From Kiritimatiellia bacterium (GTDB lineage: Bacteria > Verrucomicrobiota > Kiritimatiellia > RFP12 > UBA1067), in the NCBI GenBank assembly GCA_045598785.1, contig JAZLMR010000035.1, positions 2,091 through 66,090 of the forward strand: a stretch of DNA of 64,000 nt, written 5' to 3'. The notes beneath the pieces were generated by a model. It was not told the origin of the DNA. It saw nothing but the letters and a program-made list of their open reading frames with translations, and searched no databases. Both the position numbers and the translations under genes were made by a program. Positions 31,516 through 58,791 of this stretch are shown in pieces (position 1 is the stretch's first letter; every line of letters begins with the position of its first letter).

Positions 31516-31525
31516 TTTTGTTTAA

Positions 31526-31616
31526 GTATGAAGTGTGAAGTATGAAGTATGAAGTATGAGTGAAGGAATTTATCGTTCATAGTTCATAGTTCATAGTTCA
31601 TCGTTCATAGTTCATA
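31526..31616. repeat. Two mutually inverted tandem heptamer arrays, 5x GTATGAA and 6x GTTCATA, separated by a 14-nt spacer, in the ackA-pta intergenic region
   Basis: Read directly: 31526-31560 gtatgaa gtgtgaa gtatgaa gtatgaa gtatgag; 31575-31616 gttcata gttcata gttcata gttcatc gttcata gttcata. The TATGAA/TTCATA cores are reverse complements. The last unit overlaps the ackA stop codon. Confidence 0.9.
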
Positions 31617-32763
31617 GTTTCTCCAACACTCTCACCGTGTCCCGCGCGATCATCAGTTCCTCGTTGGTCGGGATCACGATCACCGGAATCTTGGAGCCCT
31701 TCGCCGAAATCACCGCCGTTTCGCCGCGCTTCTGATTGGCCTTGGCGTCAAGCTTGATGCCCAGCGCCCCGAGCCGACCGAGAATGCGCTGGCGAACTTC
31801 GCTGGAATTCTCGCCAATGCCGCCAGTCATGATGATCGCATCCGCGCCGCCGACAATCGTATTGTAGGCGCCGATGTAGAAGGCGACGCGATACGCCAGC
31901 ATCTCCAGCGCCAGTTCCGCGCCGCGGTCGCCCTTCGCCGCCTTGGCGCAGAGGTCGCGGCAGTCGCCGCCCGGCACGCCGCCGACCGCCTGCAGGCCCG
32001 ACTGCTTATTCAGGAGCTTGTCCATTTCCGCGGGACCAAGCTTCTCGCTTTCCATCAGCGACAGCACCGCCGCCGCGTCGATGTCGCCGCAACGAGTGCC
32101 CATTATGAGCCCCGCCAGCGGCGTGAGGCCCATGGAGGTGTCCACCACGCCGCCGTTCTTGATCGCCGCCAGCGACGAACCGTTGCCGAGGTGGCAGGTG
32201 ACGAGATTGACCTTCGCCAGCGGCTTCTTGAGGAACTTGGCCGCCGCCTGGGTGATGAACTTGTGCGAAGTGCCGTGGAAGCCGTACTTGCGAATGCCGT
32301 ACTTTTTGTAGAACTTCGGATCGATCGCATACATGCCGGCGCAATCGGGCATCGTCGCGATATGGAAGGCGGTGTCGAAGACGCCGACGTTCGGCACACC
32401 CTTGAAGATCTTCTCGCACGCCTCGACGCCGCCCAGATTGGCCGGCATGTGCAGCGGGCCGAACTTGACGAGCTTCTTGGCCTTAGCGAGATTGGCCTTG
32501 TTCATGAGCGCGGAATCGCGAAAGACTTCACCGCCGTGCAGGATCCGGTGGCCAATCGCGTCAATGCCCTTCGCCGCGTCGCCAAGATCGGCGACCACCT
32601 GCCGGAGCGCCTCGGCGTGGTTGGCGGGGCCGCCGGCGCCGATGCGCTCGACGAGCCCCTTGGCGAGCCGCTGCTCCCGCTGCATGTCAAAGAGCTGATA
32701 CTTGAGCGAACTGGAGCCGGAGTTGACTACGAGAACCTTGCGAATAACCTTTTTCATTTGCAT
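31612..32763 (-). CDS. ackA: Acetate kinase
   Basis: 383 aa. N-terminal VLVVNSGSSSLKYQLFDM is the acetate/propionate kinase signature. Confidence 0.9.
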   Translation of the reverse strand: MQMKKVIRKVLVVNSGSSSLKYQLFDMQREQRLAKGLVERIGAGGPANHAEALRQVVADLGDAAKGIDAIGHRILHGGEVFRDSALMNKANLAKAKKLVKFGPLHMPANLGGVEACEKIFKGVPNVGVFDTAFHIATMPDCAGMYAIDPKFYKKYGIRKYGFHGTSHKFITQAAAKFLKKPLAKVNLVTCHLGNGSSLAAIKNGGVVDTSMGLTPLAGLIMGTRCGDIDAAAVLSLMESEKLGPAEMDKLLNKQSGLQAVGGVPGGDCRDLCAKAAKGDRGAELALEMLAYRVAFYIGAYNTIVGGADAIIMTGGIGENSSEVRQRILGRLGALGIKLDAKANQKRGETAVISAKGSKIPVIVIPTNEELMIARDTVRVLEKL

Positions 32764-32778: not shown

Positions 32779-35700
32779 TTACTTGTAAAGCGAGACGCGG
32801 AAGAAGCCGGCATCGCCCTCGACCCCGCGAACGGGAACCTTGGAGGCGCCGGCACCGACGGTGATGGTCTGGGTTTCGCCGACCTTGATCCAATTGACAT
32901 CCGCAAGGCTGGCCTTCCAGTAGACGTCGCACTTGACCGTCATCGTCTTGCTGACGATCGCCTGGGCGAGCACGCTGTCGTTGCGAGCCGGCTCCGTCTG
33001 AGCTTCAACCTCAATCACGACATCGCCGTTCTCGTCAAACGCGAGCGAACTGATGATGACGCCGTCTTCGACCAGTTCGTTGCTGACCGCCGCCGAAATC
33101 GCCGCCGCGAAGGTGTCGTAAGCCGAGACGTCGCTGCCCAGCGCCAACGCCATCGCGCCGGCATTGCTCAGGGTGAACATCGCCTGCGCCGCGAGCCCGC
33201 CGTTGATGTCCTGGGCGCCGATTCCAAGCTCCTGCATCAAGTTCTCGGTCAACACGTCGCTGATGGCGAACTCCCCGGCCGCCGAGAGGTTGAGCTCCTC
33301 GACGCCCTTGGTCGTGAGGTTGCCGTACATGGCAAATTCCCAGGCATCCGGCAGCCCGTCGCCATCGGTATCGGCATCTTCGAGGAAGATCTCGCAGAGA
33401 TCCCCTTCGCCAACCACGTTTGCGATCTTGACCGCCACCGGGTTGAGATAGTCAGCCGTGGTGCCGTTGCGCTGACAGAAGTAGCCCATCGTCTCCCATT
33501 CGTCGCAAACGCCATTGGCATTGGAATCGATGAACGCCTGGAGATAATAGGTGCCCGGAGGCAGCCCGATGAGCGTGCAGTTGGCCGTAAGCTCCCGATT
33601 GGTAACCGCCAGGCCCGTAATCGCGTCGGCAGGCTGAGCCACATAGCCCGCCGCCACCGGCGTGCCGGTAAAGTCAGGCGAGGTATAGGCGCGGACGCGA
33701 ACCTGCTTGCTCGCGAAGCTCTCCGCCGGACCGAAGTAGCGCACCGCCACCGGCACCTTGCCGCTCGACCAGCCGTTAGTCTGCACCGCCATGCGGAACG
33801 ACGGCGCGTCGGAACTGAAGACATCGGTGCTGAACTTCGCGTTGTACATCGCGACCTTCCAGCTGTAGTTGGTGTTGTTGTCAAACACCACGCCTTCCTG
33901 CGTCTTATCGCCCACGAAGAGCGGCGCCGCCCAGACATATTCGTTCTTGCCATTGCGCGCCGGCGCCGGCAGGATGCCCGAATCGTAGACCTTGGTCTTA
34001 GCCGCATCCGTCTTCAGCACCTGAATGCGGAAAGCCGGATAGCCTTCTTCGTCGGGGCAGTCGAGCTTCCAGGTGAAGGTCGGATTGGCCGTGCGCACCA
34101 CGCCGCCGACTTCGCCCGCCGACACCGGCTCCGGCAGCACGCGATCCTTGCCAAACTTACGGGTTACGAGCGTATCCAACGCCGTCACCGTATAATTCGT
34201 CAACACGGTCGACCACCAGTCAACTCGGGCATCGCCAGTCACCACCAAATAGGTCACATTGGTGATTCCCAGCTGCTTACTCTTCACGACCGAATTGTTG
34301 ACCACCTCAGAATTGAGATATTTCCAATCCAAGTCAAGTTCACCGTTAGCGAAAATATCAGCTTCCGTCAACACCGACCGAACCGAAGTAGTGACATACT
34401 TGTCAAGCACCACTCGATTCTGAATCCCGCAATCCACCGCCGAATTGCCATCGACCAGCCACCGGACAACGCGAATATGCTGCGCCTTGTCCGAGCTTTC
34501 CAACGCCGTCGACACAATGTTCATCTTCGCCATCCAGCTCAGCGAAGAGGGCAGAATGTAAGACTGCGTCAGCCAGTCATAGTATTCAGGGCGGGAAATG
34601 CCGCGGTCGGACTCCGCATCAACAAGACTAATGCGTGGCGTTACCGGGCTCACGTCAGTCAGCTCGATTTCCGCCGAAGTGCCGCGCCAGGAGACCTCGA
34701 CATTTCGAACGACGCCATAAGGCTCCCCGGCCGAATATTCACCGTCACCGTCCAAATCGGCAAAGGCAATAATCATGTTCTTGCCTTCCCGGACATGGCC
34801 GACCGTCGCCTCGCCGAGATAAAGCTGACGCGGCAAACCGGTCAGCGGATTGGCCTTGTAGGCGATGCGGAAATACTTGTCCTCGAACGAACTCACCTCG
34901 TTCCGATTGGACACGTTGGAGCCATACCAGCCCTTGAAGACGCCCAAGTCGAGGTCAAACTCGCCGGTGGCCAGATTGATCGTGCCGAACTGAGTGCCGT
35001 CCTTGGTCACCCAAACGCCAAAGTCACTGTCGGCCTCAGCGCGAACCTCGGTGCCGACCAGTTCCGAATAAGCCGAGCTGGAAGGCAGCTTCTCGACGCC
35101 GGAGCCGTCGGCATTGGAACCCAAGACCCCGTATTTGCGAACTGCATCCTCATATTCGGCAATCGTGCCGCGATAAACCACGTATTCGCCATTGTAATGA
35201 TACTTCCAGCTGCATACCGTCGCCGACGGGCCGTCGCAGGCCTGGAGCGACATCGAGCTCGCCATCACGCTGCCCGGCGTCAGCGTGCCCACCATGTGAC
35301 GGTCAGACCACTTGCCAAGCACGCGATAGAGCTGATTGCTGCCCACGCCGACTTCCACCTTGTAGCTGGCGTCCGGCTCGGACTCCAGTTCGCCGGTCAC
35401 GAACTTGACGACCATCGGCGCCGACTCGACCGTCGACTGGCGGCGGCCGTTATAGCGGAGGGTGAGCGCAATCGTCGGCACCGGATAATCGGAAACTAGC
35501 TCGCCCGAAGCCGCCATGTGGCGCTGACGGTCGGCGATGATCGGCATGCACAGCTTCGAATAACGCACCTTGCTGCGGTTGCACCAGCCGTCGAGCTCGC
35601 GATTCGCGAAGGCATCGTAAACGAGCCGCGAGGCGAAAGTGCCCGCATACTGATCTTCCCATTCGTCATCGACCAGATCGTGATCGGTGAAGATCTCACC

Positions 35701-38700
35701 CGCATAGAGCTTGCCGATCCGGAAGAAGTAGTCGGGCGTATAGCGATTGACCGAGAACGGATCGGTCGGGCTGAACGTGAACCCGTCGAAGCGGAAGACT
35801 TCCGAGAGCATGTATTCGACATAGTTGGAAAGCCCGTCGTGGTCGCTGTCATCGAGCGCCGACGCGTTCGCGAGTCCATAGATGTTCTCCCACCAGTCGG
35901 GCAGCCCGTTGGCATTCAAGTCGTAAAGCTGCCGATACTTGGGATCGTCGAATACCCCCTCGACGTTCTTGTCGGCATAGGCGCCGCGGGCCAGATCGCG
36001 CAGATACGCTTCGCGCGCCGTCATCTTGACCCCGTTATAGAGGACATAAGTCGAAGGGGCAATCGGGGTCTGCGGATCGTCGGGGAGGCGGTATTCCCCA
36101 TCCGCATAAGCCTCCCACCAGTCCGGCAGCCCGTCGCTGTCGCTGTCATAGCCGGTGATCTCCCAGTTGGCGCTGGCCCCCTGCTTGTCCCACAGCCCGA
36201 CCGTGTTGTCGCAGAACTTCACGAACGCGCCGCCGAGCGGGAGCAGATCGTCGCCACACTGCGCCGCCGTGCGCCCGGCGAAGTTGAAGAGATTGGCCAA
36301 ACCGCCCATCACGTCGCCCGGGCAATAGGTCGGGCTGAACACGAGCTGATGCCGCGCCGCCGTCGTCCGATAGGCATTGTCGGCGGTCGCGAAGTTGCGC
36401 GTATACTGCGTCCAGAGCGAAACCGGTTCCGCGTCACGGGCAAAGCCATAGTTGCCATTGACGCCGCCCGCAAAATCCTGGCTCCAGAAAGCCGAGTCGC
36501 CCGTCGTGCCGTCAATGCGCGGCAAGTGGGCCATCGTATCCGGCACCCAGGTCACCCAACGCGGATCGGCATAACGCGAACCGTACGCATCGAGGACGCG
36601 CTTCCACCAGCCGCAAACCCAGTCGTCCGGACGCGACCAGCGGCCGGCGTCGGAATCGAGGAACCCGACCGGCGCCTGCGCAAGCGACTCCACGTTGTCC
36701 GCGCCGAAGACGGAATCGAACGAATAGTGGTGACGAAGCTCCGGCAGCACGTTCATGCCGCGGGCGAGATCCGAGTAGCGGCTGTAGCCGAACGCCAGCC
36801 ACTTGTCATAGAAGGCCGCGCGGTTGCTGACGGCGTCGGCCGCCGTGAAGCGCTGGCGCATCGCGCCCGAGATCTCCGCCTGGCTGCGCGCGCCGTCCCA
36901 GATGCGGACTTCGTCGACATAGCCCTTGAAGAAGCGGGTATAATAGTCCCAGCCCTTCGCCTCGGTGAGGTCGAGCGCCCGGCCCACGGTCTGCGAAGCC
37001 ATCGGCCCCGGCAGCTCGGCGTAGGTCTTGAGCGACGCACCGACAATCAGCGCGCAGTAGGAATAGGTCTTGCCGAACGAGAAGTCGTCATATTCGTTCG
37101 CCAGTCCTTCCGCATGCCGGGCGACGATGGCGTTGCGGCCATTCTCCGGCCACAGCTTGTTGACCTTGCCGTCAAGGTTTTCGCCGACCGAAATCCCGTT
37201 CACGTAGAAGCGGAGCGATTCGCCGTCATAAGTCGCCGCGAGGTGCACCCAGCGGTTGGGCTCGACGGTCACGCCGCTGTCGACGAAGACCTGGCTCTCC
37301 ACCTTCGTGCCCGTGGTGTCGAACTTGGTGAACCACTTCTGCGACTTGATCGCGATCTGGAAGTTCTTGCGGATGAACTCCTCGTCGGCCGCGCCCGATT
37401 CGGAACCCCAGACGGCGCGTTCGATCACCACCGAATCGGCGTCCGACTCCGGATAGGCCCAGCACTCGACCGTATAATGGCGGAAGGTGTCTTCGGTATC
37501 GAACTTGGTCGCCCCCAGCGGCGAAAGCTCGACGCACCGCGGCATCGTCTGCAGCGCCGACTTGTCGCCCGGGAAGTACATCGCCTGCCGGCGCATCGGC
37601 GCATCGGCATTCAGCGGGCTGGAATAATCGGTGATCTTGCCCGACAGCTCGCTGCTGTCGTTGACGCCGTCATGGTCGGTGTCGTAGCCTTCGTTCTCTT
37701 CGAAGGAACAGACCCAGTTGAAGTTATTCTGGGCGGCAACCGCCCACTTGTCGGGATTGTAGACCCCGAACGCCGGCACTTCGCCGTCCGCCGTCTGGGC
37801 CAGGGTGTAGCCGCCGAAATCGCAGAACTTGTACTCATCGCCTTCCGGAGACGTGAAGGTCGGAGCGCCGAGCAACACCGGGCTGAAGCGCGCCGGCATC
37901 CGGAAGAACAGGCGCACCAGCGAATTCGAGTAGCTCGAATCGGTCATCCACAGCGGCGTCGGGTCGGTGTGGTTCGCATAATCGAGCGCGTCCCGGGTCT
38001 GGATCGCCTCCTCCTCGTTGCGGATGTCGTCGCCATCGGGATCGGCGCCGAGCATGCCGTTAAGCCACGGATAGACGGTGAAGTCCATGCCCGTATTGGT
38101 CGCGCGCGCATCGGCCTTCGCCCGGAGCGGCGAACCGAAGCGCGTCCAGGTGTTGACCAGGTCCAGCGACTCGCTCTGGTCGCGGCGCCAGGCCTTGACC
38201 GGCGACTCGTACATCGTGCCGGCCTCGGCGTTCATGCCGTAGCACCACGCATGGTAGACGAGGTCGCACGGCTGGCCGTTCTCGTTGCGGACGCCTGCGG
38301 CGCCCAAAAGCGGATTCATGCCATGGAAGAGCTCGTAGTAATCGTCCATACCGTCATGGTCGGAGTCGGCCTCGATCGGCGAGGTGCCCATGTAGCACAT
38401 CGGCGTATAAAGCGCCTTGTTCTTGACGAGCCCCGCGCTGACGAACGCCAGGAACCAGTCATTTTCGGGCTTCGCCGAAAGCTCATGGTCGACGCCGTCG
38501 TAGAAGAAGTAGTAGGTGCCGGCATCGGTGAACGCCGGGTCAAACCCGTTCTTCACCCGCGTGAAATACTGCGAGCCGACCGGCGACTGGTCCATGACCA
38601 GATAGGGGTTGTAGATCGGGCTCTGGGTGTTGACCAGGGTCTCGTACCAGAACCTGCCCTCGTCGACCGTATCGTCGAGGAGCTTGAGCTTGGCCGACTC

Positions 38701-41700
38701 GACCGCCTTGTCAATGTTGAACACCCAGGCGTGTTCGTCTTCGTTCCAGTCGAAATAGGCTTCCTTCGGCGTCGAGTCCCAGCGCGAGATCGGGTCGTCA
38801 TAACGCCAGCAGCGCATCGTGCCGGTCAGATATTCCTGCCAGTTCTCCAGACCGTCGCGGTCATAGTCGCGATTGACGGCGTCTTCGTTGCCGGATCCGT
38901 CGAGAATCGACGCGACCAACTTGTTCCACGGCCGGGTGTAGGCATCCTTGACCGTGCCGTCCATGCCGTTGACAATGCCGTGGTTCTTGTCGGCAATGCC
39001 GTTCGCTTCGTCAAAGCGGCCGGCATACTGCGCTTCCCAGACGTCGGGCAGGCCGTCAAGATCGGTATCGATCGCGCACGGATTGAGGCCGCCGCCGGGG
39101 ATGCAGGTCGAACCGTCGTCAACCGGCTCGCCGTAAATGAAGCGGCCCGCCATGAACGAACACGCTTCCGCGCTGTTGGCGATGATCGCGATGTTCTTGA
39201 TTTCCGCCCCGTCGGCAAGGCCGTCCTGATCGGTGTCGGCGCCCCACGGATCGGTCGGGAAGAACTTGTTGATCCACTTCTCGTTGCCGCCCGGCGCCCC
39301 GTTCACCGTCGCCGAATATTCCGTATAGTAGGCGGTAGTGTCGGTGCCCGAGAATTCATTGAGTTCCGTAAGCCCGTCACCGTCGCCGTCGGTAGTCGCC
39401 AGCATCTGCGAGAGCGGCTGCCACGGATCCAACTCGCTCGAAGCCACGAAATTGTAGCAAAGCGCCGTCCCCGTCAAGCCAATCTGCTTTTCCACCTTCG
39501 GACCGGCCATCACATAGAGCTCCCAGCCGTCCGGCACGCCGTCGCCATCGGTATCGGCGCCGTTGTCGCTGCCCGCGGCCTCGGTAACCGCCGCCTTGGC
39601 CGTTTCCGTGCCTTCGTCCTTGGAGTTCGCCACTTCGGCGACCGCCGTCTCGCCCGGACCGCGCGGATTGGTGGTGAACTTCGCGAAAATCGTGCTCCAG
39701 GGCTGAGTGAGCGACGGCGTCACCTCCGACTCCTTCAGCACCCCGTTGTTCATCAGGAACGAGAGCGTCAGGAACTCGTCATAGGCCGTAAACGCGCGGG
39801 TGCGGGTGGCGATGCCGGCATAGCCGCTGAACGAGCCGTCGCGGGCGGTGCCGTCGGCCTCCTTCGCCCCCCAGCGCGCGTTGAGCGGAGTGAAGGGATT
39901 CCACGCCGTGCGCGGATCAAAGCCGAACTCCTGATAGACGAGGTAGTGGAGATACGCGACGCTCCGCTCGGTCGACGGCGCTTCGACGATCACCGCCTCC
40001 GCCGGCGCCTTTTGCGAACGCCCGACGGCGATCTGGCCGAAGCCGACCATGTCGGAAACCGACTCGTTCGCCGAAGTCGCGAGTCCGCCCGCAGCCGTCG
40101 TGCCGTAGATCCAGGCCGCGTTGCAGAGGTGCTCGGGCACTTCCGCCGTCAGCACCAGCTCGGCGCAGGGCACCGTCGACTCGGCCACGTTCCGCAGCTG
40201 CGTGCCCGCCAGCACCCGGATCGGCAGCCCGCGGCAAATGACCACCGGCTCTTCGCCCGACTCGGTGATCTTGAAAGTATCCTCGCGGTTCAGGTCCTTG
40301 GCCAGCATCGGCGCAGCGCCGGCGCTCTTGCGGATGGTCGCCTTGGTAGCCGCCTTGATCCAGTCGCCCGACGCGACGTCGAAATACTCGAAGACCGTCA
40401 CCGCCGGAATCGAATCGGGCCTGAGCTCGGTCTGCACGAGCGCGGCGTCGGTGACGACATACCACTGCACGCCGTCGGAATCGCCCGCGTCGTCGGCCAG
40501 CGCGAAGCTCGTCGGCGCAAGCGGATCGTACTGCTTGGGCCGGTAGCCCTCGGCCTCGTACTTGGCGGTCGTGAACGCCATCGCGTCGCCATCGGCGTTG
40601 CGCAAGCCGTCCGCCACCTCGCCGTCGGTCGCATACTTGATCGGGCTCGTGCCCGCGACCATGATTTCCCAGCCGTCGGGCAGGCCGTCGCGGTCGGTGT
40701 CGAAATCGAACGGATTGGTGCCGAGATAGAACTCGATCACGTCCGGCAGGCCGTCGTTGTCGGTATCCTGCACCTTGGCCTCGAAATTCGACGCCTTGGT
40801 CGGATTCATCGCCTTTTCGATTTCCGACGCCGGAATGAAGTCGCCCTCGGACGGATGCCGCGGATTGAAGCGGCGACCGGTCAGGTAGACATGGTTCGGG
40901 CCGTCCATATAGCCGACGTGCGCGCGATACCAAAAGTAATACTCGAAGCCGTCGTTGAAGCCGTCGCCATCGGTATCGGCGAGCGTCGGATCGGTCGGGT
41001 TCTCCGGCGTCCACTGCGACCACTTGGTCTCGTCGTCCAGCGACCACTCGTGCGCGTAGGCGTAATCGACCCACGCCAGATACTCGACCGGCGACAGCGT
41101 CGAATCCCCGTAAAGGTTCGGATCGATATACTTGAGAACCGGCTTGACCCCGGTCACGCCCGCAATCGCCGGCGCATTGTTGAGATGATCGTCCAAGCCG
41201 CGGATTTCCAAGACCGCGCTGAACTCGATCGGATTCGCCAGCGCCGCCGAAAAATCAATGAAGCTCGCGGTGAGGCTCGCGGGCAGATAGTCGCCGACCG
41301 CCGCGCCCGACTCGTCCTTGTCGTCATTGTAGGCGGAAAGCGACTTGATGTCGTCGACCGTCGTCTCCTCGGTCGAAGTGGTGCCGCGCGCATCCGTCAC
41401 CTCGGCCGACTGCGAGAAGTTGTACTTGGTGAAATACAGGTCGGGGATGCGGTCCATGTTGATGTCGCCCATGTTGTCGGAGGCGTAGTATTCCTTCGAG
41501 AAGATCGCCTCGACGGTGGTCATGGGCCACGACTTGCTGTTTTCCCCGAGCTGCGTCGGCAGGTCGACCGAGCCCGCCTGCGCCCCGCGTTCGGGCCGCT
41601 CCGGCGAAATCACCGCCGAAACCGATTCGCCCTCTTCGGCACCCTCGCCCTTCTCCGCCGCACTCGGCATCAGCCAGGCGTAGAAGAAGGAGTCGCGCAT

Positions 41701-45456: not shown

Positions 45457-45465
45457 TTAAATCCC

Positions 45466-45846
45466 TTATTGCTTCGGTTGCGTGGGCTTCAGCCGCTGAC
45501 GGACGATTGCCTCCGTCTGGCGCGTCGACGCCTCAAATTCCCTGGCCAGCTCCTCCAGCTGGGCCTTAAGTTCCTGCGCCCGCGCGCTGCCCGGCGCCTG
45601 GGCGTTTTCCTGATCATATTCCCGCTTGAGCTCCAGGTGGCGCTTGATCAGCGACTGCTTGGCCTGCTCCTGCCGCTTCAGCTTGCCCATGAACTCCTGA
45701 TCGTTCAGGTAACTGGCGGGCGACGACGGATCCACCGCCGGCGCCTCCTCGCGGCTGCAGCCGACAACCGCTCCCGTCAGCATCAACGCCAACGCGAGCG
45801 TTCTTGGCCAGCACCAGAACGTTTTTATTTTCGCCATTTGAAACAT
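45466..45846 (-). CDS. Small coiled-coil lipoprotein (126 aa) between two giant genes
   Basis: Signal peptide plus lipobox (LALALMLTGAVVGCSRE), then a charged coiled-coil segment (KLKRQEQAKQSLIKRHLELKREYDQENAQ...LKAQLEELAREFEA). Confidence 0.5.
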   Translation of the reverse strand: MFQMAKIKTFWCWPRTLALALMLTGAVVGCSREEAPAVDPSSPASYLNDQEFMGKLKRQEQAKQSLIKRHLELKREYDQENAQAPGSARAQELKAQLEELAREFEASTRQTEAIVRQRLKPTQPKQ

Positions 45847-45879
45847 TTTACCATCTTTCCGCCATTTCAGGCAAGCGCA

Positions 45880-48800: not shown

Positions 48801-51800
48801 ATTCCGGATCGTTGTTTTCGTTATAAAGCGGATTGTGCGCCTGCCGAGCCAGTTCTGGATCGACCACCGCCCGCATGACGCCGACGATGCCGTGCTGCCC
48901 GATGTAAGTGGAGATAATGCCCTGCTTGCGGTCGTCGGCGCTCAGCGCGGAGAAATCGACCGTCTCGACCGTTTCCCAGCCGAGCTGGCTTTCGGTGATG
49001 CTCGCCAGCGTCGTGTAGTCGACGTCATTGGTGGCGATCTGCACCAGGAGGCGCGCCTTGGGATGGGCGTCGCGATAGGCGAAGCTGAAGGATCCGAGGC
49101 CGGTGCCGCGGCCGTTGCGGCCGTCCATCAGCGGCGAACGGACGCTGGCCGGCGTCTCGGCGGTCGCCCGCATCGGATTGAGCTCCACTTCGCTCCGGTC
49201 GTTGATCCAAGCCGTGGTGTAGATGAAGTTGGACGGCGCTCCGTAGCCGACATCCGGGAAGAGGTAGCGGTCGGGGTTGCTGGCATCGTCATAGTCTTCA
49301 CCGCGCCACTGCCGCAGCGAGAGCGAATCGATGACCACGTCGGAGCTGCCCGACTCCAGCCCCGTATGCAGCAGCACGTCGACATCCTCGGCGAGATACA
49401 GCTTGATCACCTGCTCTTCGAAGCCGAACGAACGCACGTAGTTGGTGCAGACGGGAGTGAAGTTCTCCTCCAGGTGCGGCGAGGTCTCGACAACGACATA
49501 CTGGTTGGGAACCTGCGCCTTGAAGCCGTAGACTTGCGCCGGCACGTCGTTGGAATAGTCCTTGATGTCCATCCGGTCGCGATAGATGTTCCAGTTCTCG
49601 TAATCTTCGTCGAAATTGATCAGCGGCTGCTCGTTGGCGAAGGTGACCGTCTTGGAACTGGTCCAGTGATGGAAGCCCGGGTCGTTGCCCGCCGCCGCCG
49701 AAGCCCAGTCGGTCGCCCACGCAACGGCATTCGGCGACAGCACCGGCCGCGCAAAGACCGCCGGACAGTCGCGGGAGCCGACGCCGAAGGTGCCCGAAAC
49801 GTAGTTGACCGTATTCGAGTCGCAAAAGCAGACCTTGTAGAACGGCGAGCCGGAAAGCCGCGTCGACTTGTCGACCTTGACGCCGCCCGGCGTGTTCAGG
49901 ACGCCCGCCACCACGCGCACGCCGTCGACCGCGTTGCTGCACGAAATGAAGAGCGCGCCCAGGTGATTCTGATAGCCGTCCAAGCCCATGCCGCTGGAAC
50001 CGCCGTACTGGTAATAGGAGGAGCGGCCGAGCGCCTGCACCGTGCCGTTCGCCAGCCACTTGTAGAGGCAAAGCTGCACCTGGTCCTCCGAAACCCGCTC
50101 CAGCCGCGCCTCGTAGCCGCCCTTGGAATCGCGGAAGTTGGCGACCACCGAAACGCTCCCGACGCCGGTGAACTCCTTGTCGTCCAGCGTCGCCATGCCG
50201 CAGTTCACCGCGAAGGTGTAGTTCTTCATCGCGTAGACGTCGTTCGTGGTGCCGGTATAGTAGTTGAACGAATGGATGTTGTAGGACTGCGCGATGCGCG
50301 AGGAGAAGGTGAAGGTCTCGACGCCGCGCGGCGTCTGCTTGGCCGGGAACTGGATCGAACCGTAGCCCTCGCCCTTCATCTGGAAGGCAATGGACGGCCA
50401 GTTGATCTCGCGATAACGCTCCGACACCCACATGCCGTTCATGGCCGTCCAGCCGTTCGGCGTGAGCTTCTTGCCCGAGAACGGCTTTTCAATCGCCCAG
50501 TCGCCTTCCGTCTCCGCGACGACATTGAAAAACTCAGTCCACCACGAGCCGTTGGTCGCCGCCGTTTCGGCAAACATCGTAAAGGTCTCGGCCCAGTTCT
50601 GCGCCTTGCGCGAAGCTCCGGAGCGGCGGTCGACGTCGGTGAAGGTGCCGACGAAGTGACCGTTCACGTCGCCGTCGGGCAAGTTCGCATCCGTCCACCG
50701 GTTGAAGTTCTGGTAGTCGGCGTGGATGACGGTCAGCGTCCGCGTCTGATCCTCGACCTGGAAAAGCAGATAGCCGGTAACGCCGTCGCAGGGCACCTTC
50801 GCCCACTCGTCGGCGCCGCCGTCGACCAGCACGTCATTCACCGGCAGCTCCCGCTGGTCGACGCCATGCAGGTAATTGGTGGACCACTGGTAGTCGCTGC
50901 CGCCATTGACCTGCGGATTGAGCGCCACGATGCGGTACTCCAGCCCGGCGGTGAAATTGGTCAGCGTCTGGTAGAAGCCGCGCCAGATGTGGTCGTCGGC
51001 CAGCTTCATGGGAATCATGCTCACTTCCGCCGGGCGCTCCGGTCGCCGCACGTAAAGCCGGAACGCCTCATAGGCGCTCGCCCCGTCACGAAGCCGCACG
51101 AAATAGTCGGTGCCCATGGCCGGAGATGGCTTCGCCTCGGAATAGACGCCGTCGGCCACGGCTGAAATGCGCACGTTGTCGCGCCGCTCGGTATAGCCGT
51201 CGGGCCAACGCCAGCCGCTCAGGCCGGAGTAATCCCAATACTCGTAGAACGGCGCGTTGACCGTCGCCTCGACCGAATACTCGATGTCGCCCGTGCCATC
51301 GGCCTCCAGCGGCGCCGTGGTGACGAATTTCGTCGGATCCGACTCGCTGGGATTCATCAGCAGCCGCTTCCACGGATTGACCTTCTGGTTAAGATAGCGC
51401 CAGCGGTAGTTCATCGTCATCGCCCCGACAAACGAGGCATCGACCTCGTTCGTGCCGTTGACGATGTACTCCACCTTCGCCAGGCCATGCAGCCGCCCGA
51501 TGTCGGCCGCGGTCGGGAAGGCGATGTCAAACGGCGCGCGCTGGCCGCAGAAGGCATCGGCGAAACGCTCGGTCGGAATGTCGCGGGTGTCGTCTTCGCC
51601 ATAGGCCGGCGCCCCGTACTGCCGGAGCCGCGCGCCCATCGCCGGCGCGGATACGATGATGTTGTCGACAATCACCAGCCCTTCGCCGTCGGGGCCGACA
51701 TCCGCGGCAAAGCCCACGCCCGGCGCATCGACGCGCACAATGCGGATGCGCGCCGGACCCGTATGGTCGATGGCCGCGCGAACGCGGTAGAACCAGTTCG

Positions 51801-54504
51801 TCGTCCCCTCCAGCTCGCGCATCGCCAGCCGCGCCACGTTCGTGCCGAAGACCGACGAATCCAGCTCCGTCACGCCGTCGCAGATCGCAAACACGTCGAA
51901 CAGGACGTCCTTCCACTCGCCTTCGGTGACCACCGCCTCGTCGCTCTCGCACAGCTGCACCTTGAGCTCGCCGGCATAATCGCAATAGGCGTTGACCGCA
52001 TCGAAGTAAACCGTGCCGACGCCATTGGGATAATAGGGCGAATAGGCGGCCGCCGGATCTTCCGCGTCAGTTTCGAGCGACCGGTTCTGCAAGATCAGCG
52101 TACCGGCATAGCGCTGGCCGTTCGCCCGCTTTTCGGAATCCTCGAAGCGGCAGGCGTTTCCGCCCCAAGGCAGCATGTTCATGCCCTCCTTGAGCGTCCA
52201 GTCGTTCTGGAAGAGGTTGCCGATGCGGGCATGGCGGAAATGCCACAGCGGCCGGCCGGTGTCGGGCTCGTTGTAGACATGCATGTCGCCATCCATCACG
52301 AAACGCCCGCTGCCGTCCCAGGCCGAACCCGAATGCTCCCAGACCTCGTTCGTCGTCGAGTCCACGTCATAAAAGCCCTGCAACGCCACCGGGCACTCCG
52401 GCGACTCGTCGGAATTGAAGAGCATCACCCGGTCATAGCCCGAAAGCTGCCGATAGGCGCGCTGCTCGAAAATGACGAAATACAGCTCGTAGGTAAGCCC
52501 CGAGCGCACGCCCGCCGGCACGTCGGCGACCACCCGATAGGTGCCCGGCACCGTCGGCCGCGCCTTAAGCTCGCGCCCGTCGAGATCGTAATACTTGAGA
52601 ATCGAAACGCCGTAACGCGGGCGACCGGCGTAAACCACCAGCGAATCCACCTCATCCAGCGACACCGCATTCGGAATCACCTGCGGCTCCTCAACCCAGT
52701 AGTTGTCGGAATCCTTCGTCGAGCCGTTGCCGTACTTCAGATAGCCGGCGTCCAGTTCCTGATTGTATTCCGCCTGGATCCAAATCTCGCTCCGCACCGT
52801 CTTCGCGATGCGGATTTCATCGCCGCAGAACCCGTTGAGAAACACCTGGAAGCCGCAGTTCGTAGGCGCATAGGCGTAGACGCCGCCGTTGACCAGCCGC
52901 CCGTTGGCATAGAAGGCGAACGCATCGTCGGGCGTATGCGAGAAGCCGACATGGAACCAATTCTTGGTAATGTCGGGGAGGCCGGAAAGCGTATACCCCG
53001 CCGCCCCTTGCGCCAGATAGTGGATCGAGCCCAGGCCCTTGGTCGCCACGCCCCACCCCGCCAAGGCCGAACTCGCCTGCCCGGCCTTGTAGCCGACGAA
53101 CGGCACATCGCCAAACGCCGTCAGGTCGCGGGCCAGATACCAGCCGGTCAGGGTGAATTCGCCGTCGACCAGCTGCCGCGACAGGTCGGCGGCCATCAGC
53201 GACGCCGAACCCTCCGCCTGCTGGGCCAGATAACCCGCCGGGCCGACCATCGGCTCCGCCGCCACCACCAGGTTGCCGTTCTCCACCCGCGCCGTCCAGC
53301 CGTTGCCCGTCGAATCCTTGGCCGAACCGGCCGCCGCGTCGCTGAAGTGCCAGACCGCCACGTAGTCGCTCCAGACCTCGCGCGGATTGTTGGGCGGCAG
53401 GGCCGAACCGCTCTGCTGACCCCAGTGCATGCGGATGCGCGCGCCGTTGCGCATGAGCGGCACCTTGACCCAGAAGAGCGACTCGCCGCCCGGATTCCAG
53501 GTGTCGATTTCAAACGGCAGCAGCTTGCCGTTCTCGTCGGTGAAGCGAATGTCATTGCCGACATAATCGGCCCGCGAATAGTAGAAGCCCGCGATATTCG
53601 CCTCGGAAACCCGCACCAGCAACGGGAAGCCGATCAGCGAGTTGACGCCCTTGGGGAAGCCTTCGACGACGATTTCGGCGCTTTCGCGCAGCATCGTGAC
53701 GTCGTCCTGGTCATAGCCGGGATTCTCCTGCGGATTCACTCCCGTAAAGTTGATGTTCTCGACGGCGGCCGCACCCGAAACGCCGAACGAATAGAGCCGC
53801 TCGGCATATTCCGAAGTCGGCTCGACCATGCTCGGGAAGAGCGTGACCTCGTCGGCCGCGACCAGACGGTCGTCAACCCGCACCTCGAACCCGATCAGGC
53901 CCGGCACGCCCGGCACCGCGTTCGCCCGCGCCCGCAAGGTGAGCCGGAACGGCTTGCCGGGAATGACCGAGGCGTCGGTGACGTAGTTGGTCGCGGAAAT
54001 CACGCCGCCGTCCGACACCAAGCCGGCGGTAACCACGAAATTCGTCACCGTCTTGTCGGGGGAGACGTAAATCCAGCAGTTGATCTTGTCGCGCTCGCTG
54101 AACCGCCGCGGCATCACCAGGTTGTCGTGGGCATAGAGCGTCACCGTCGAGTCGATGTAGATGCCGACTTCCGGCACCGCCTGACCGTGAATCGCCGCCG
54201 GCCCCGAGGATTCCAGCGCCGTCAGCGGCGAAATCGTACGGTGCACTTCGGAGTCGGCCGAGGTCTTCAGATAGCCCTTGGCCTGGCCCACGTGCTGCAC
54301 GATCTTGCCGACCCCGTCGTCGATGCCCAGATACCAATGCGTCGCTCCGGTGTAGTTGCCGCTGTCGTCAAACCCGAAGCGAACTTCCTTGTCCCACAGC
54401 AGATAAGCCGTAAAATCAATGGAGCCTGGCAACAGGGAAGAGCCGCTGACAGTCCCCGCCGTCAACGAAGCCCAACCGAGCAAAGCCAGCAGTTTCGCTC
54501 TCAC
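45880..54504 (-). CDS. Giant secreted protein (2874 aa) with an N-terminal LamG-like module shared with the adjacent 936-aa protein and a second LamG-like domain
   Basis: 8.6-kb ORF with signal peptide MRAKLLALLGWASLTAGTVSG. The N-terminal ~240 aa parallel the 936-aa protein (SIDF..., TNFVVTAGL, RLTLRARANA, GFEVRVDD). LamG-like block around comp(52750..53400) (CGDEIRIAKTVRSEIWIQAEYNQ). 4-nt overlap with the upstream 936-aa gene. Confidence 0.85.
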   Translation of the reverse strand: MRAKLLALLGWASLTAGTVSGSSLLPGSIDFTAYLLWDKEVRFGFDDSGNYTGATHWYLGIDDGVGKIVQHVGQAKGYLKTSADSEVHRTISPLTALESSGPAAIHGQAVPEVGIYIDSTVTLYAHDNLVMPRRFSERDKINCWIYVSPDKTVTNFVVTAGLVSDGGVISATNYVTDASVIPGKPFRLTLRARANAVPGVPGLIGFEVRVDDRLVAADEVTLFPSMVEPTSEYAERLYSFGVSGAAAVENINFTGVNPQENPGYDQDDVTMLRESAEIVVEGFPKGVNSLIGFPLLVRVSEANIAGFYYSRADYVGNDIRFTDENGKLLPFEIDTWNPGGESLFWVKVPLMRNGARIRMHWGQQSGSALPPNNPREVWSDYVAVWHFSDAAAGSAKDSTGNGWTARVENGNLVVAAEPMVGPAGYLAQQAEGSASLMAADLSRQLVDGEFTLTGWYLARDLTAFGDVPFVGYKAGQASSALAGWGVATKGLGSIHYLAQGAAGYTLSGLPDITKNWFHVGFSHTPDDAFAFYANGRLVNGGVYAYAPTNCGFQVFLNGFCGDEIRIAKTVRSEIWIQAEYNQELDAGYLKYGNGSTKDSDNYWVEEPQVIPNAVSLDEVDSLVVYAGRPRYGVSILKYYDLDGRELKARPTVPGTYRVVADVPAGVRSGLTYELYFVIFEQRAYRQLSGYDRVMLFNSDESPECPVALQGFYDVDSTTNEVWEHSGSAWDGSGRFVMDGDMHVYNEPDTGRPLWHFRHARIGNLFQNDWTLKEGMNMLPWGGNACRFEDSEKRANGQRYAGTLILQNRSLETDAEDPAAAYSPYYPNGVGTVYFDAVNAYCDYAGELKVQLCESDEAVVTEGEWKDVLFDVFAICDGVTELDSSVFGTNVARLAMRELEGTTNWFYRVRAAIDHTGPARIRIVRVDAPGVGFAADVGPDGEGLVIVDNIIVSAPAMGARLRQYGAPAYGEDDTRDIPTERFADAFCGQRAPFDIAFPTAADIGRLHGLAKVEYIVNGTNEVDASFVGAMTMNYRWRYLNQKVNPWKRLLMNPSESDPTKFVTTAPLEADGTGDIEYSVEATVNAPFYEYWDYSGLSGWRWPDGYTERRDNVRISAVADGVYSEAKPSPAMGTDYFVRLRDGASAYEAFRLYVRRPERPAEVSMIPMKLADDHIWRGFYQTLTNFTAGLEYRIVALNPQVNGGSDYQWSTNYLHGVDQRELPVNDVLVDGGADEWAKVPCDGVTGYLLFQVEDQTRTLTVIHADYQNFNRWTDANLPDGDVNGHFVGTFTDVDRRSGASRKAQNWAETFTMFAETAATNGSWWTEFFNVVAETEGDWAIEKPFSGKKLTPNGWTAMNGMWVSERYREINWPSIAFQMKGEGYGSIQFPAKQTPRGVETFTFSSRIAQSYNIHSFNYYTGTTNDVYAMKNYTFAVNCGMATLDDKEFTGVGSVSVVANFRDSKGGYEARLERVSEDQVQLCLYKWLANGTVQALGRSSYYQYGGSSGMGLDGYQNHLGALFISCSNAVDGVRVVAGVLNTPGGVKVDKSTRLSGSPFYKVCFCDSNTVNYVSGTFGVGSRDCPAVFARPVLSPNAVAWATDWASAAAGNDPGFHHWTSSKTVTFANEQPLINFDEDYENWNIYRDRMDIKDYSNDVPAQVYGFKAQVPNQYVVVETSPHLEENFTPVCTNYVRSFGFEEQVIKLYLAEDVDVLLHTGLESGSSDVVIDSLSLRQWRGEDYDDASNPDRYLFPDVGYGAPSNFIYTTAWINDRSEVELNPMRATAETPASVRSPLMDGRNGRGTGLGSFSFAYRDAHPKARLLVQIATNDVDYTTLASITESQLGWETVETVDFSALSADDRKQGIISTYIGQHGIVGVMRAVVDPELARQAHNPLYNENNDPEFGRVFITMAGARDNPTLDSGSWWGWNLRTTDDESMWLLSDGTKGDLRTHGLSYALNNSVTDDVRADQDYKPHMPFLQTPIFLKGVVGEVSFKARKYNPGDANPTVTIYGTTSTDPAAEDSDFEYLGEIEIGCDRYETFSFQAPLTKNYTAFRFAVTGVAGVTGEAGPYPAAGNVQRVLLDEVAVFEAIRARLGFRNTGTFRTNLGDARYLPNMPRKDQQPLCNEEWGIQTELYAAQLSNKIDLDTPEHAPRVFFHWYENVYPWGYDNWRDHADAKSAELARAEGTDSLVYRSSHLSAAGSVVAPSEKSGTVVQYSLEVVYYMKGQDLPLTNALSAADWQKPAWFEPVDCNAQYGNGAFSAYNILDTVAPGWAWINEVNLFGGYAQSGASVDKDYQYLEIAVPSEADITGWSVRMLVAQTGSGSVLTNEAATFGQDGLTGMKKDLLGQASGMVFRVIASLPTYQTGRLSLNDGTLDGVWNFKNWDGNILKADGRISEMSPFGIQLVRSSGIVEDEIVVIGTNFWAGSEYLRDQYSPTNTVNFLNAHMSGADFVYVGDDDGGETKSLSVATGRGESSNNWDRVMVHTPGRINTYADGTPQEIDPDHPSPFGTSIYVYCNLLGPHIYQTCGEAVDSTASQILVIQKNSQRGTNVTYRVDKWYELGSVRANDVEVASVVTNELDNSYMVTIGLNAESNVTVVAEARVCKELRDLGVDEQNRYSEAIIDWFSKGRNLYGVEWPEGPVRLAKFVPYRRGIDYATDMSLTDMYWLDMCPTLPHDQYLIAGFALPPTPVERPLPDRPEYAGYEGDASLTNRQMSIYMAISNGIGRVTDAGVTNTMYSPYVIRGLTPGYTSWDYATNSLGFNWTNASFKVNGILANGLTQESNKDNWVSLRWFVFDENSFYGPNAGEQAFTTEIEIKDPFATDSPGYAAGWAEWAKKHGWRPAVFNGWAIDERQLLMTIEVLRPRNYYEDFW

Positions 54505-57311
54505 TGGACCTCCTCGACCGCATGACCGGTCACTTCATAAATCGGACAATATTCGGTGTAGCGCTCAAATTCTTCCGGCGCCCCCGACTTAAGGCAATTG
54601 CTGAAGAGCGGATCGTTCTTCCCCGGGCGATACGCCAGCCGCAGGCTCCCCGACGCTTGCGCGCCCGCCGCCGTCGAGAAGAACACCACATTGGTCTTGC
54701 CGATCTCCACCTGCAGGTCGGAGAACGCATAGCCGAGACGCGAGCGTCCGTTGGCCAGCACCTGAGCGCCGACCAGATACTCGCCCGAAGTCGCATCATA
54801 GAAGTCGGACCGCGGCGCCGAAACCACCGTCTGCCCCGCCGCCGTCGTCACCGCCAGGTAAGCGGCGCTCTTGGGGTAGAGCAGCGGATTGACGAGCCCG
54901 AACGCAATCTCGTCGATCGCCACCTTGTCCCCGAGCGCCAACCCCGCCCGCGGCGGAATCGTGAACTGCCAGGTGCCGGAATAAGTGCCGTTGGACTCGG
55001 CCACGCCCGAATTGGACCAGGAAATGAGCTCCGCGAGCCACAGCGCCTCCAAATCGAGATTGCCGCTCACCGGGATTTCCGTGCCGACGAAGCAGGCGCC
55101 CTTGCCAACCGCCGCCACCATCCGGCCGGTGTTCCGGTCACGCCAGCCGCCGAAGGTGTAATTGTAGCGCGTCACCTGCGGCAGCGCCGTAAGCTCCCGC
55201 TCGACGGTATACGACCTCAACGCCGTCACCGGCACCGCATAGTCATAGTCGATGACATAGCTGTCGAGCTTCTGCAGCGCCCGGAGCGTCATGTCGCCGG
55301 TCACCTCGTCGCTCGCGAAATTCCAGAACCGGCCCGTGGCCACTTCGCACCAGTTGGTGATCGTCCAGCCGAGCGCCTCGACTTTCGGCTCGACCAGTTT
55401 CCTGCCGACATCCAGATTCAGGTTGGTGCTCGCCGGCGAAACCGTGCCGCTATCGGCTTCAAACTTCACCAGCACCCGGCCGTCATAGGTGACCTGCCAG
55501 TTGCGGCACATCTTCGAGCCGACCGTCTCCGACTCGCCCGGCACGATCGTAAAACGCGACTGGTCGACATGTTGAGCGAGATAAAACGTATCGCGCGGCT
55601 CCAGCGACGGCGGCGTGAGATAAGTGCCGCCGCAGATCGCCAACGTCCCCTTCGACACCCGCACGCGCCCCCGCACCGAGAAATCATTGGCGATGGCCGT
55701 CGACCCGAGCGTAAGCGCCGCCGTCTGGTGCTTCACCTCCAGCGCGTCGTTGTCGGCCACGACCTCGACGGCATTGCCCGGCGCCACGATCGCCCCGCCG
55801 CCGACGGAATCGACGATCGTCAGCCGCCCCTGATCGTAAATCGCCGCTTCATCCTGGAAATGCTCGCCGGTGATCCGCCGGCCGTGCAGGTCCAGCGTAA
55901 TCTCATGGGTCGAGCGGATCCAGAGCTGCCCGTTCTCGGTCGTCGGATCCAGCGTGACGTCCTTCTCCATCACCAGCGGCGACTTCGACGCATTGGCCGC
56001 TTCGAGCGCATCCTCGAAGAATTCGTAAGTCCCGTCGCCGACCCGGAAATAGGAATCGCCGACATTGACCCGCGCCACCAGCTCGGCATCGTCGGCAAAC
56101 GCCAGCCCGCCCGTCAGCGCAAACTCATAGCCCGACTGCGACGCGACGGCGGCGGGATTCCCGACCAGCGCCAGCGCCGGCGCCGGCGCAAAGCCATGGC
56201 CCGCCAGCGCCGTCACCTTCACCTTGTCGCCCGGACGCACGGTGAAGACCACTTCGGCCTCCGCCACCGAATTCGTCGTGAAGTAAGGCGCCGTCGCCCC
56301 GGCCGCCGTGACCGCGCAGACCACGTTCGTGACCTTCGCCGGATCCAGCACCACCCGGACCGAAAGCTCGTTCGCCTCGCGCGCAAAGGGATTGCCGTCA
56401 TTCACCACCGCAAACTCGTCGTAAGCCGCGATGCCCTGCACGCCAAAGCCGGAAAGCGACGGCTTGACCGTCTCGTAGGCGCAGATCGGCGGGAAGAGCG
56501 ACCGGCGCTCGTAATGCGGATTGCCGGCAAAGGTATCCGCGATCGCCGCCGGCTCGTCGCCCAGCACATAATCGACGGCGGCGGCGCTGAGCGGCACGCC
56601 GTCGAGATACGCCACGAACCCCGGCGCCTCGACCCCGCGCTGCGTCGCGGCGTTGGCAATCGCCCGCACCGTCAGCCGATACCACCGGCCGACCTCGACC
56701 TGGTTGGTGACCGGATAGTTGCAGCGGTAAAGCGAGCGCGACGAAGTGTAGCGACCGCCGGTCACCACCAGGTTGGTCACGCCCGAACCCGGCGGCGAGG
56801 ACAGCCAGACCATGAACTTCGCCTTGCCGTCGATGTCCTGCAACGGCACCGAATAAAGCGAATTGGTCGACGGATGGAAACGCACCAGCTTGTCGATGAA
56901 AAGGTCGTTGGCCGCCGGGATCGTCAGCGCCGCGGACGCGCCGCCATCGCTCACCGGATTGAAGGCCCGCACCAGCGGCGACAGCGCCCGCACGGAAACA
57001 TAGCCGTTGTTGTCCGACCTGCCGTGCATGTAGCTCGGCCGCGGATTGCGAAGCTGGTTGAAGCGATCGTAGCGAGTCTCGCCGTAGTTGTAGTTGGTGA
57101 TGAACGAAAGGTTCATCTCGGCGCCGCCATAACGCCAGTAGCTGTTGCCCTGCCCGCCCTCGATGCCGCTTTCGTCCAGCCCGTAGCGCGGCACCTTGCC
57201 CCAGAGATTGGAGTTCTCAAAATCAATGGAAGTGACGGGCGTAATCGCGTTTGCAACCAACGCGACCATGCCAACGGCATAGCACATTATCAAGGAAAGT
57301 GCTCTTCTCAT
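54501..57311 (-). CDS. Large secreted protein (936 aa) with an N-terminal LamG/concanavalin-like module
   Basis: Signal peptide MRRALSLIMCYAVGMVALVANA. Jelly-roll-like pattern (KAKFMVWL...GSGVTNLVVTGG...RSLYRC...GRWYRLTVRA...GFVAYLDG). N-terminal domain paralogous to that of the 2874-aa protein. Confidence 0.8.
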   Translation of the reverse strand: MRRALSLIMCYAVGMVALVANAITPVTSIDFENSNLWGKVPRYGLDESGIEGGQGNSYWRYGGAEMNLSFITNYNYGETRYDRFNQLRNPRPSYMHGRSDNNGYVSVRALSPLVRAFNPVSDGGASAALTIPAANDLFIDKLVRFHPSTNSLYSVPLQDIDGKAKFMVWLSSPPGSGVTNLVVTGGRYTSSRSLYRCNYPVTNQVEVGRWYRLTVRAIANAATQRGVEAPGFVAYLDGVPLSAAAVDYVLGDEPAAIADTFAGNPHYERRSLFPPICAYETVKPSLSGFGVQGIAAYDEFAVVNDGNPFAREANELSVRVVLDPAKVTNVVCAVTAAGATAPYFTTNSVAEAEVVFTVRPGDKVKVTALAGHGFAPAPALALVGNPAAVASQSGYEFALTGGLAFADDAELVARVNVGDSYFRVGDGTYEFFEDALEAANASKSPLVMEKDVTLDPTTENGQLWIRSTHEITLDLHGRRITGEHFQDEAAIYDQGRLTIVDSVGGGAIVAPGNAVEVVADNDALEVKHQTAALTLGSTAIANDFSVRGRVRVSKGTLAICGGTYLTPPSLEPRDTFYLAQHVDQSRFTIVPGESETVGSKMCRNWQVTYDGRVLVKFEADSGTVSPASTNLNLDVGRKLVEPKVEALGWTITNWCEVATGRFWNFASDEVTGDMTLRALQKLDSYVIDYDYAVPVTALRSYTVERELTALPQVTRYNYTFGGWRDRNTGRMVAAVGKGACFVGTEIPVSGNLDLEALWLAELISWSNSGVAESNGTYSGTWQFTIPPRAGLALGDKVAIDEIAFGLVNPLLYPKSAAYLAVTTAAGQTVVSAPRSDFYDATSGEYLVGAQVLANGRSRLGYAFSDLQVEIGKTNVVFFSTAAGAQASGSLRLAYRPGKNDPLFSNCLKSGAPEEFERYTEYCPIYEVTGHAVEEVQ

Positions 57312-58046: not shown

Positions 58047-58066
58047 ATCCTCGGCTCTAACTGCCG

Positions 58067-58789: not shown

Positions 58790-58791
58790 GC

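Follow-up and report, generated by a model that had tools for sequence, protein, structure and literature searches.

What do three consecutive giant secreted proteins contribute to a bacterial cell, and are they the surface adhesins for which they can be taken at first sight? The question is raised by a stretch of 64,000 nt from a Kiritimatiellia bacterium (here called the window; positions 2,091 to 66,090 of contig JAZLMR010000035.1, GenBank assembly GCA_045598785.1). An earlier note, made from the sequence alone, had described in it three co-directional open reading frames (ORFs) of 936, 2874 and 4225 amino acids (aa) as a candidate undescribed surface-adhesin locus. The coordinates of these ORFs proved to be exact, and together with a small lipoprotein gene they are a real operon of four genes, A-B-C-D, that is conserved in Kiritimatiellae of gut and environmental origin. 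The giants are non-repetitive, nearly all-beta proteins with many lectin-type jelly-roll and sandwich domains, i.e. LamG, DUF2341, lamin-tail-like and carbohydrate-binding-module (CBM)/MAM-like ones.

All genes called in the window are on the minus strand, and the coordinates given below refer to that strand unless stated otherwise. Gene A (54501-57311) encodes the 936-aa protein, all-beta and multidomain with a signal-peptide-like N-terminus, and gene B (45880-54504), with a GTG start, the 2874-aa protein with a signal peptide. Gene C (45466-45846) encodes a lipoprotein of 126 aa with a charged, coiled-coil-like body, and gene D (32779-45456) the 4225-aa protein, again with a signal peptide. 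Together they cover about 24 kb and 8,161 codons. The stop codon of A is overlapped by the start of B, and gaps of 33, 9 and 15 nt separate B from C, C from D, and D from the downstream gene ackA, respectively. No terminator-like site was seen between A and ackA, and scans for promoters and terminators gave results at or below chance level. The cassette and ackA-pta are probably transcribed together. The database gene calls for the same contig have 928 aa for A, 2874 aa for B and 4218 aa for D, with slightly later starts of A and D.

On the plus strand, ORFs of 2723 aa (35518-43689) and 2462 aa (43777-51165) lie antisense to B and D. That opposite-strand ORFs are equally long, and that the D gene of one relative (L014) is split by a frameshift, could suggest that the giant ORFs arose by misassembly, are pseudogenes or are themselves non-coding shadows. 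This explanation is refuted by codon bias, by independent intact homologues and by the antisense ORFs, which are not conserved in relatives, and we give it next to no credence. The GC content at third codon positions (GC3) of the minus-strand frames is 0.81-0.86, equal to that of dnaE, ackA, rho and uvrA, and GC3 values of 0.84-0.86 together with the codon bias mark the minus strand as coding. Among the codons of the four cassette genes, TTA, CTA and TCA, which read as stops on the complementary strand, make up 0-0.5 per 1000, and their near absence from minus-strand genes of high GC3 accounts for the long shadow ORFs on the other strand. The window ORFs are intact, and many independent assemblies hold intact full-length homologues. 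The L014 frameshift, at 8483-21093 of that locus, is confined to that assembly; it yields calls of 1867 and 2307 aa, with the homology continuing in another frame.

The order A-B-C-D was found in L001, L002/L003, L004, L009, L013, L014 and L094, with identities of 35-61% for B and 30-49% for D across the cassette loci. The sizes of the A, B, C and D products are 927, 2826, 127 and 4185 aa in L001, 944, 2852, 112 and 7774 aa in L002 and L003, 942, 2854, 122 and 4201 aa in L009, and 941, 2868, 141 and 7634 aa in L013, where B is just 35% identical. The genes are also present in L004 and, with the split D, in L014. In L094 an A' of 698 aa has the same N-terminal domain, B' carries Gly_rich_2 instead, and C' and D' are present. 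Homologues of A form at least 12 clusters (46-53% identity, 927-952 aa) and those of B at least 34, both numbers being lower bounds because the search depends on shared words. B homologues of full length (coverage of the query ≥88%) reach down to 27% identity. In the B family, members of the cassette type have 2824-2893 aa, and one cluster contains 14 members from independent assemblies, every one of them of 2826 aa. In distant B homologues (L094 401-24126; P0031, P0038 and P0039), Gly_rich_2 (PF21722) replaces the A-like N-terminal domain; P0039 (2210 aa) is solitary, without the cassette, and adjoins ribosomal protein genes.

The family of D is much larger when the search starts from its C-terminus. 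The C-terminal 1196 aa matched 763 representatives (one per 50%-identity cluster) at E<=1e-3 and 343 at E<=1e-30, mostly of 3900-7800 aa, and among the best 150 of the 763 representatives 69 have 4000-4500 aa and 36 have 5000-7800 aa. For the 119 of these best 150 with at least 3800 aa, a simple heuristic indicated signal-peptide-like N-termini in 114, and the median number of strict TSP3 motifs is 12 (range 8-23). With the N-terminal 1450 aa as query, two matches were obtained; this part is the most variable, whereas conservation is higher in the centre and the C-terminal third. The alignment with the L009 copy extends over 3180 aa at 49% identity. About a quarter of the representatives exceed the 4000-4500-aa mode by 1000-3500 aa (e.g. 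P0050, P0063 and P0066). In P0066, P0074 and P0082 the region matched by the C-terminal 1196 aa of the window D stops near residue 4000, so that the extra length follows the core, and extended members retain the conserved C-terminal motif at their end.

The named relatives, those of the D family included, are called ‘hypothetical’, ‘LamG domain-containing’ or ‘DUF2341 domain-containing’ proteins, all of Kiritimatiellae, and the relatives are labelled as metagenome-assembled genomes of Kiritimatiellae or ‘Verrucomicrobia’ from human gut, rumen and other samples. The literature on Kiritimatiellae with thrombospondin, giant or LamG proteins, and on DUF2341 with LamG, did not describe the cassette, in agreement with the suggestion that the locus is undescribed.

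Protein D consists of the variable N-terminal 1450 aa, a TSP3-rich centre, a LamG domain and a beta-rich C-terminal third. The earlier note had counted about 16 TSP3 motifs; they are indeed present, but we found 12 with the strict pattern (DxDxDGxxDxxE) and 14 with a loose one, and none in A and B. Nine of the 12 strict, calcium-binding-type motifs are in the TSP3 region (residues 1494-2603; 37648-40977). The family TSP3_bac (PF18884) scored 29.5 bits on full-length D (cut-off 25) and 46.7 bits, in five stretches, on the central piece. The LamG domain (Laminin_G_3, PF13385) occupies residues ~2640-2840 (36937-37539; E 8e-20, 72 bits versus a cut-off of 27.6), and the LamG domain of pappalysin was the sole sequence relative of D in the PDB. 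A weak match to DUF2141 was also seen, and more than 85% of D has no Pfam family even at E<=1.

The last ~120 residues of D (32782-33141) are a conserved C-terminal beta domain with the motif GF[FY][KR]V.[IVL] in its last strand, 2-5 residues ahead of the stop. The core F[FY]x[VI] occurs within the last 15 residues of 117/149 D-family representatives, the strict GF[FY][KR]V-type motif in 89/119 of the long ones, and the terminal motif in almost all of 79 metagenome loci. These loci were found with an alignment of D C-termini, a single C-terminus as query having found nothing. A hidden Markov model (HMM) of the domain revealed no other carrier among the 2211 ORFs of the window and the loci (~1.5 Mb), and therefore no evidence for a general sorting tag. 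The domain is a candidate attachment or recognition module.

The N-terminal domains of A (residues 1-319; 56355-57311) and B (residues 1-281 including the signal peptide; 53662-54504) are homologous to each other, with 26% identity in BLASTP (E 1e-9) and a probability of 99.5% when the family profiles are aligned with hhalign (E 4.5e-22). This was the sole match in an all-against-all BLASTP comparison of A, B, C and D, which detected no internal repeats in any of them, and hhalign found no relationship of A or B with D except for a weak LamG core. For A, the Pfam scan gave no match besides Flg_new (residues 699-729). Its AlphaFold2 model is all-beta, with a mean confidence (predicted local distance difference test, pLDDT) of 63, and a Foldseek search of the model against the PDB gave no match below E 1e-3. 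Sequence searches of the PDB with A and with B found nothing.

The sole Pfam family in B is DUF2341 (PF10102; residues 316-403, 53296-53559; 29.4 bits versus a cut-off of 23.4). It is followed by a LamG/tetanus-toxin-Hc-like lectin jelly roll (residues 426-584; 52753-53229), which was recognised when the B family profile was compared with the PDB (tetanus toxin Hc, E 6.5e-5) and which matches the LamG domain of D weakly in hhalign. PF13385 exceeds its gathering score in D, not in A or B themselves, and matches this region in several B homologues. The proposal that each giant has LamG domains therefore holds for D and has indirect support for B; for A, the finding is that its N-terminal domain is homologous to that of B, which does not identify it as LamG. 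B is the most evenly conserved of the three giants, with few indels from residue 600 to its end. The model of residues 1700-2874 (45883-49407; pLDDT 76) shows an array of CBM/MAM/lamin-tail-like beta sandwiches in series, with reelin repeats as the best Foldseek match (7.7e-8) and further matches to RPTPmu MAM-Ig, Eph ligand-binding domains, meprin MAM and tandem CBM22. The Foldseek matches of this part comprise jelly-roll and CBM folds and no catalytic fold.

The small lipoprotein inside the block, already remarked upon in the earlier note, turned out to be a conserved member of the cassette. Its lipobox has an invariant G-C pair in seven aligned cassette copies, and the charged body is helix-prone. 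No match was found for C in Pfam or NCBIfam.

The signal peptides proposed for the giants were read by eye as Sec-type ones, with a simple heuristic applied to the D family, and C has its lipobox. Signals of the PEP-CTERM, LPXTG, autotransporter, RTX or type IX secretion (T9SS) kind were absent from Pfam and NCBIfam scans of the full proteins and of the C-termini, which bears out the earlier statement that known sorting signals are lacking and extends it to T9SS. The HemolysinCabind/RTX families were not detected in Pfam and NCBIfam at E<=0.01, nor on the C-termini at E<=1, and neither a type V translocator barrel nor a TPS domain was found, the C-terminal 240 aa of D and 306 aa of B having been checked at E<=1. 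Ten D-family C-termini compared with MYXO-CTERM-type and other sorting tags (NCBIfam, E<=1) gave scattered matches at chance level. The giants have no Pfam match to Big, cadherin or VCBS domains, and no TcA, SpvB or RHS/YD-repeat domains in Pfam or NCBIfam. A Verru_Chthon cassette, Tc toxins, T9SS cargo and prepilin-type proteins were considered as identities and rejected, as HMM matches or pilin-like N-termini were lacking.

On the same strand, D is contiguous with ackA (31612-32763) and pta (30478-31515; both by Pfam) and with a type-IV-pilus-like cluster (21815-30467) of a kpsF-like SIS-CBS gene, g237, PilM (533 aa), g335, g379 and a secretin (1012 aa), as the earlier note had seen. Of the 79 metagenome loci, 67 were testable, i.e. 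contained the stop codon of D and at least 1.5 kb beyond it, and in 64 of these ackA directly follows D at a distance of -6 to 211 nt (median 29.5 nt). In these loci the identities are 58-87% for ackA and 26-48% for the C-terminus of D. Wherever the retrieved flank extends, pta, g237, pilM, g335, g379 and the secretin gene follow in the same order; in a few loci the kpsF-like gene escaped detection. The 64 loci do not equal 64 independent lineages because some of them, from related samples, nearly duplicate each other.

PilM_2 (E 4.8e-44) and Secretin (E 1.9e-31) were assigned by Pfam, and coaE and rho come next. The family profile of g335 matched the Amuc_1100 structures 6KNY and 6LAD (E 2e-4), which were undetected with g335 as a single sequence; for g237, the family profile retrieved no Amuc_1102 chain from the PDB, and the agreement is in position only. 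At the position of Amuc_1099, g379 (24894-26033) has an N-terminal transmembrane helix and a zinc-ribbon-like CxC...CPxC motif. It also contains two TSP3-like DxDxDG motifs, the type of calcium motif present in D. PilM, the Amuc_1100-like protein, secretin, coaE and rho occur in this order, with g379 between the Amuc_1100-like protein and the secretin, and the published Akkermansiaceae MUL2 order is the same, with coaE and rho after the secretin (PMC13174399, PMC5332112). The likeness to Akkermansia MUL2 (Amuc_1098-1102) concerns the order of the neighbouring genes, from a small secreted protein to rho, and excludes the giants; sequence similarity is very low, and Amuc_1100 is recognised by profile only. 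Neither account of the Akkermansiaceae cluster (PMC13174399, PMC5332112) describes adjacent giants or ackA-pta.

How do the giants compare with known large surface proteins? In Flavobacterium, operons of the sprCDBF type likewise pair a giant protein of the cell surface, the adhesin SprB, with accessory envelope proteins both large and small, and the highly repetitive SprB needs a T9SS C-terminal domain and the PorP-like SprF. Unlike SprB, A-B-C-D has neither a T9SS signal nor repeats, and unlike Bap/LapA/SiiE/RTX-type fibrillar adhesins it lacks tandem-repeat arrays by BLASTP and Pfam. Giant TSP3/lectin proteins are known from the Planctomycetes-Verrucomicrobia-Chlamydiae (PVC) group, e.g. 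the ‘dockerin-type’ proteins of Omnitrophota and the giant protein of Ca. Menyafoubacter (10.1101/2023.11.21.568195, PMC12057145). They share with A, B and D the PVC lineage, signal peptides, size, TSP3 and carbohydrate-binding-type domains and a presumed extracellular role. However, the PVC giants are repeat-rich and often possess transmembrane anchors as well as modules of the catalytic, RHS or dockerin type, whereas A, B and D lack tandem repeats and any domain of the catalytic or dockerin type, and are a fixed trio with a lipoprotein at a fixed chromosomal position. Myxococcus CglD/MtsD (NF033765, NF047639), lipoproteins of gliding and cohesion, are likewise envelope proteins with dispersed TSP3 motifs in a double-membraned host. 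The NCBIfam matches to CglD and MtsD are confined to the TSP3 region of D and far below the cut-offs (for CglD residues 1487-1675 only, 37.9 bits versus an equivalog cut-off of 400). D differs from CglD in not being a lipoprotein and in being four times longer, and outside the TSP3 stretch the two have nothing in common.

Kiritimatiellae are double-membraned, lipopolysaccharide (LPS)-containing PVC bacteria and known polysaccharide degraders; that the host of the window is double-membraned and has LPS also follows from its lptD, lpxK and kpsF genes. Judging from sequence and predicted structure, the explanation that we favour, at somewhat less than even confidence, is that A, B and D together with lipoprotein C may be a lineage-wide, Sec-exported, calcium-binding, lectin-like complex of the envelope or cell surface. 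After Sec export, A, B and D would assemble into one large complex that binds polysaccharides, with the shared A/B N-terminal domain, lipoprotein C and the C-terminal domain of D as putative points of assembly or attachment, and the central part of D would be stiffened by calcium. No dedicated outer-membrane export signal was recognisable on the giants, and the nearest candidate conduit for passage through the outer membrane would be the secretin of the MUL2-like cluster behind D. Several observations weigh against this explanation. Family assignments are missing for more than 85% of D and for most of A and B, where unrecognised activities are possibly hidden, the confidence of the A model is low (pLDDT 63), and CBM-like folds are generic beta sandwiches and no proof of sugar binding. 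The restriction of the C-terminal domain to D in the ~1.5 Mb disfavours a general sorting tag, in three loci (L067, L086 and L090) ackA is missing behind D, and ackA, pta and kpsF separate D from the pilus genes, so that the order may reflect inheritance within one class, not function.

The conserved order also bears on a closer link, in which the giants would be part of the MUL2-like pilus/secretin system, either as cargo of the secretin or as the extracellular glycan-capture arm of pilus-driven polysaccharide uptake in the manner of Akkermansia MUL2. Attractive as it is, we regard this as rather unlikely, and it is kept at low confidence because its basis is a gene order conserved within one class only. 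The order from D to the secretin is kept in the 64 loci even where the identities fall to 26-35% for the D C-terminus and 58-60% for ackA, g335 is Amuc_1100-like, g379 and D have TSP3-like motifs in common, and B and D have lectin-like domains. Furthermore, in Akkermansia MUL genes for pili and periplasmic complexes are needed for the uptake of mucin products (PMC12418764, PMC13174399), and mucin uptake requires the MUL genes (PMC12418764). Yet three unrelated housekeeping genes stand between the two blocks, Akkermansiaceae retain MUL2-secretin-coaE-rho with no such giants reported (PMC13174399), L086 and L090 carry D in another context, A, B and D have no pilin-like N-terminus, and a pilus ATPase or platform gene is absent from the window. 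The most specific version, that A-B-C-D would be the outward polysaccharide-capture part of a MUL2-like uptake machine, encoded in a super-operon with ackA-pta and attached or recognised through the GF[FY][KR]V domain of D, is to our mind still more doubtful. To a structural envelope scaffold, periplasmic or like a surface layer (S-layer), that is stabilised by calcium and binds no ligand, we likewise give a small chance. The core-genome site among same-strand envelope genes (mreBCD, PBP2, rodA, lptD, lpxK and kpsF), the strikingly constant length and uniform conservation of B, the missing outer-membrane export signal and the probable co-transcription of D with the constitutive ackA-pta would fit a scaffold. 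The variable N-terminal 1450 aa of D and extensions up to 7774 aa are more compatible with an exposed surface, the domain types are those of binding modules, and S-layer proteins are usually single and far smaller. Classical fibrillar adhesins or antagonistic ‘weapon’ proteins of the Omnitrophota/PVC type (10.1101/2023.11.21.568195, PMC12057145) appear quite improbable, even though size, signal peptides and TSP3 and lectin domains resemble the PVC giants and weak CglD and internalin-repeat matches occur: tandem repeats, dockerin, RHS, toxin, hydrolase and lyase domains and signals for type I, type V or type IX secretion were not found, the CglD score stays at 37.9 bits versus 400, and the location is syntenic in the core genome. 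The idea of a surface adhesin in the usual sense is doubtful, because tandem repeats are lacking, B is uniform with few indels, and the cassette is a syntenic core-genome feature and not a variable island.

Among the features of this envelope or surface complex, as we picture it, we did not find described the fixed set of four genes, the non-repetitive and evenly conserved architecture, the N-terminal domain shared by A and B, the conserved C-terminal module of D, or the near-invariant position before ackA-pta and the MUL2-like cluster. Kiritimatiellae are common, poorly understood glycan degraders of guts, rumens and sediments, for which an unannotated lineage-wide operon of ~24 kb is a large blind spot. 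Few envelope components of these cells can be larger or costlier than its products. The non-repetitive, evenly conserved architecture departs from that of textbook adhesins and is a source of many new families of beta-sandwich domains and of a candidate new C-terminal module. The fixed site before the main ATP-yielding fermentation genes and the MUL2-like cluster provides a testable link between giant lectin-like proteins and the acquisition of polysaccharides. If true, MUL2-coupled capture would be a third design of ‘selfish’ glycan import, beside Sus of Bacteroidota and MUL of Akkermansia.

The cassette sits in the core genome, and no island signature was seen in the GC content. The gene order in the window is dnaE, DUF4838, DUF5672, a 239-aa gene, A, B, C, D, ackA, pta, the kpsF-like SIS-CBS gene, g237, PilM, g335, g379, the 1012-aa secretin, coaE, rho, uvrA, a 380-aa coiled-coil-like gene, pseudouridine synthase, aspartokinase, mreB, mreC, a 170-aa gene, PBP2, rodA, RNase G, lptD, lpxK and an AMP-binding enzyme. 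Between dnaE and A, the DUF4838, DUF5672 and 239-aa genes (57327-61242) are packed with overlaps or gaps of 15-20 nt. The earlier note had seen here a DUF4838 gene and two glycosyltransferase-like genes; DUF4838 and DUF5672 are present, and the glycosyltransferase match of the 239-aa gene is weak (E 0.011). The question raised there, whether these genes always accompany the giants, is answered in the negative. They are not partners of the cassette because the relatives have different upstream genes (radical-SAM, TP_methylase/NUDIX, C39-peptidase or others); in no relative examined were the three found at this position, and they resemble an insertion, specific to the lineage, at the 5′ edge of the cassette.

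On the other side of D, two of the metagenome loci have a different neighbour. In L086 (10985-15955) and L090 (11317-15981), D is followed by the gene for a secreted protease (M4, thermolysin-like; 1550-1650 aa) that has MAM and He_PIG domains, and the gene for an M24 peptidase comes next. In the window, the 96-nt spacer between ackA and pta (31516-31611) contains two adjacent tandem arrays of 7-nt units, with about five copies each of GAACTAT and CATACTT, which are possibly regulatory or prone to slippage.

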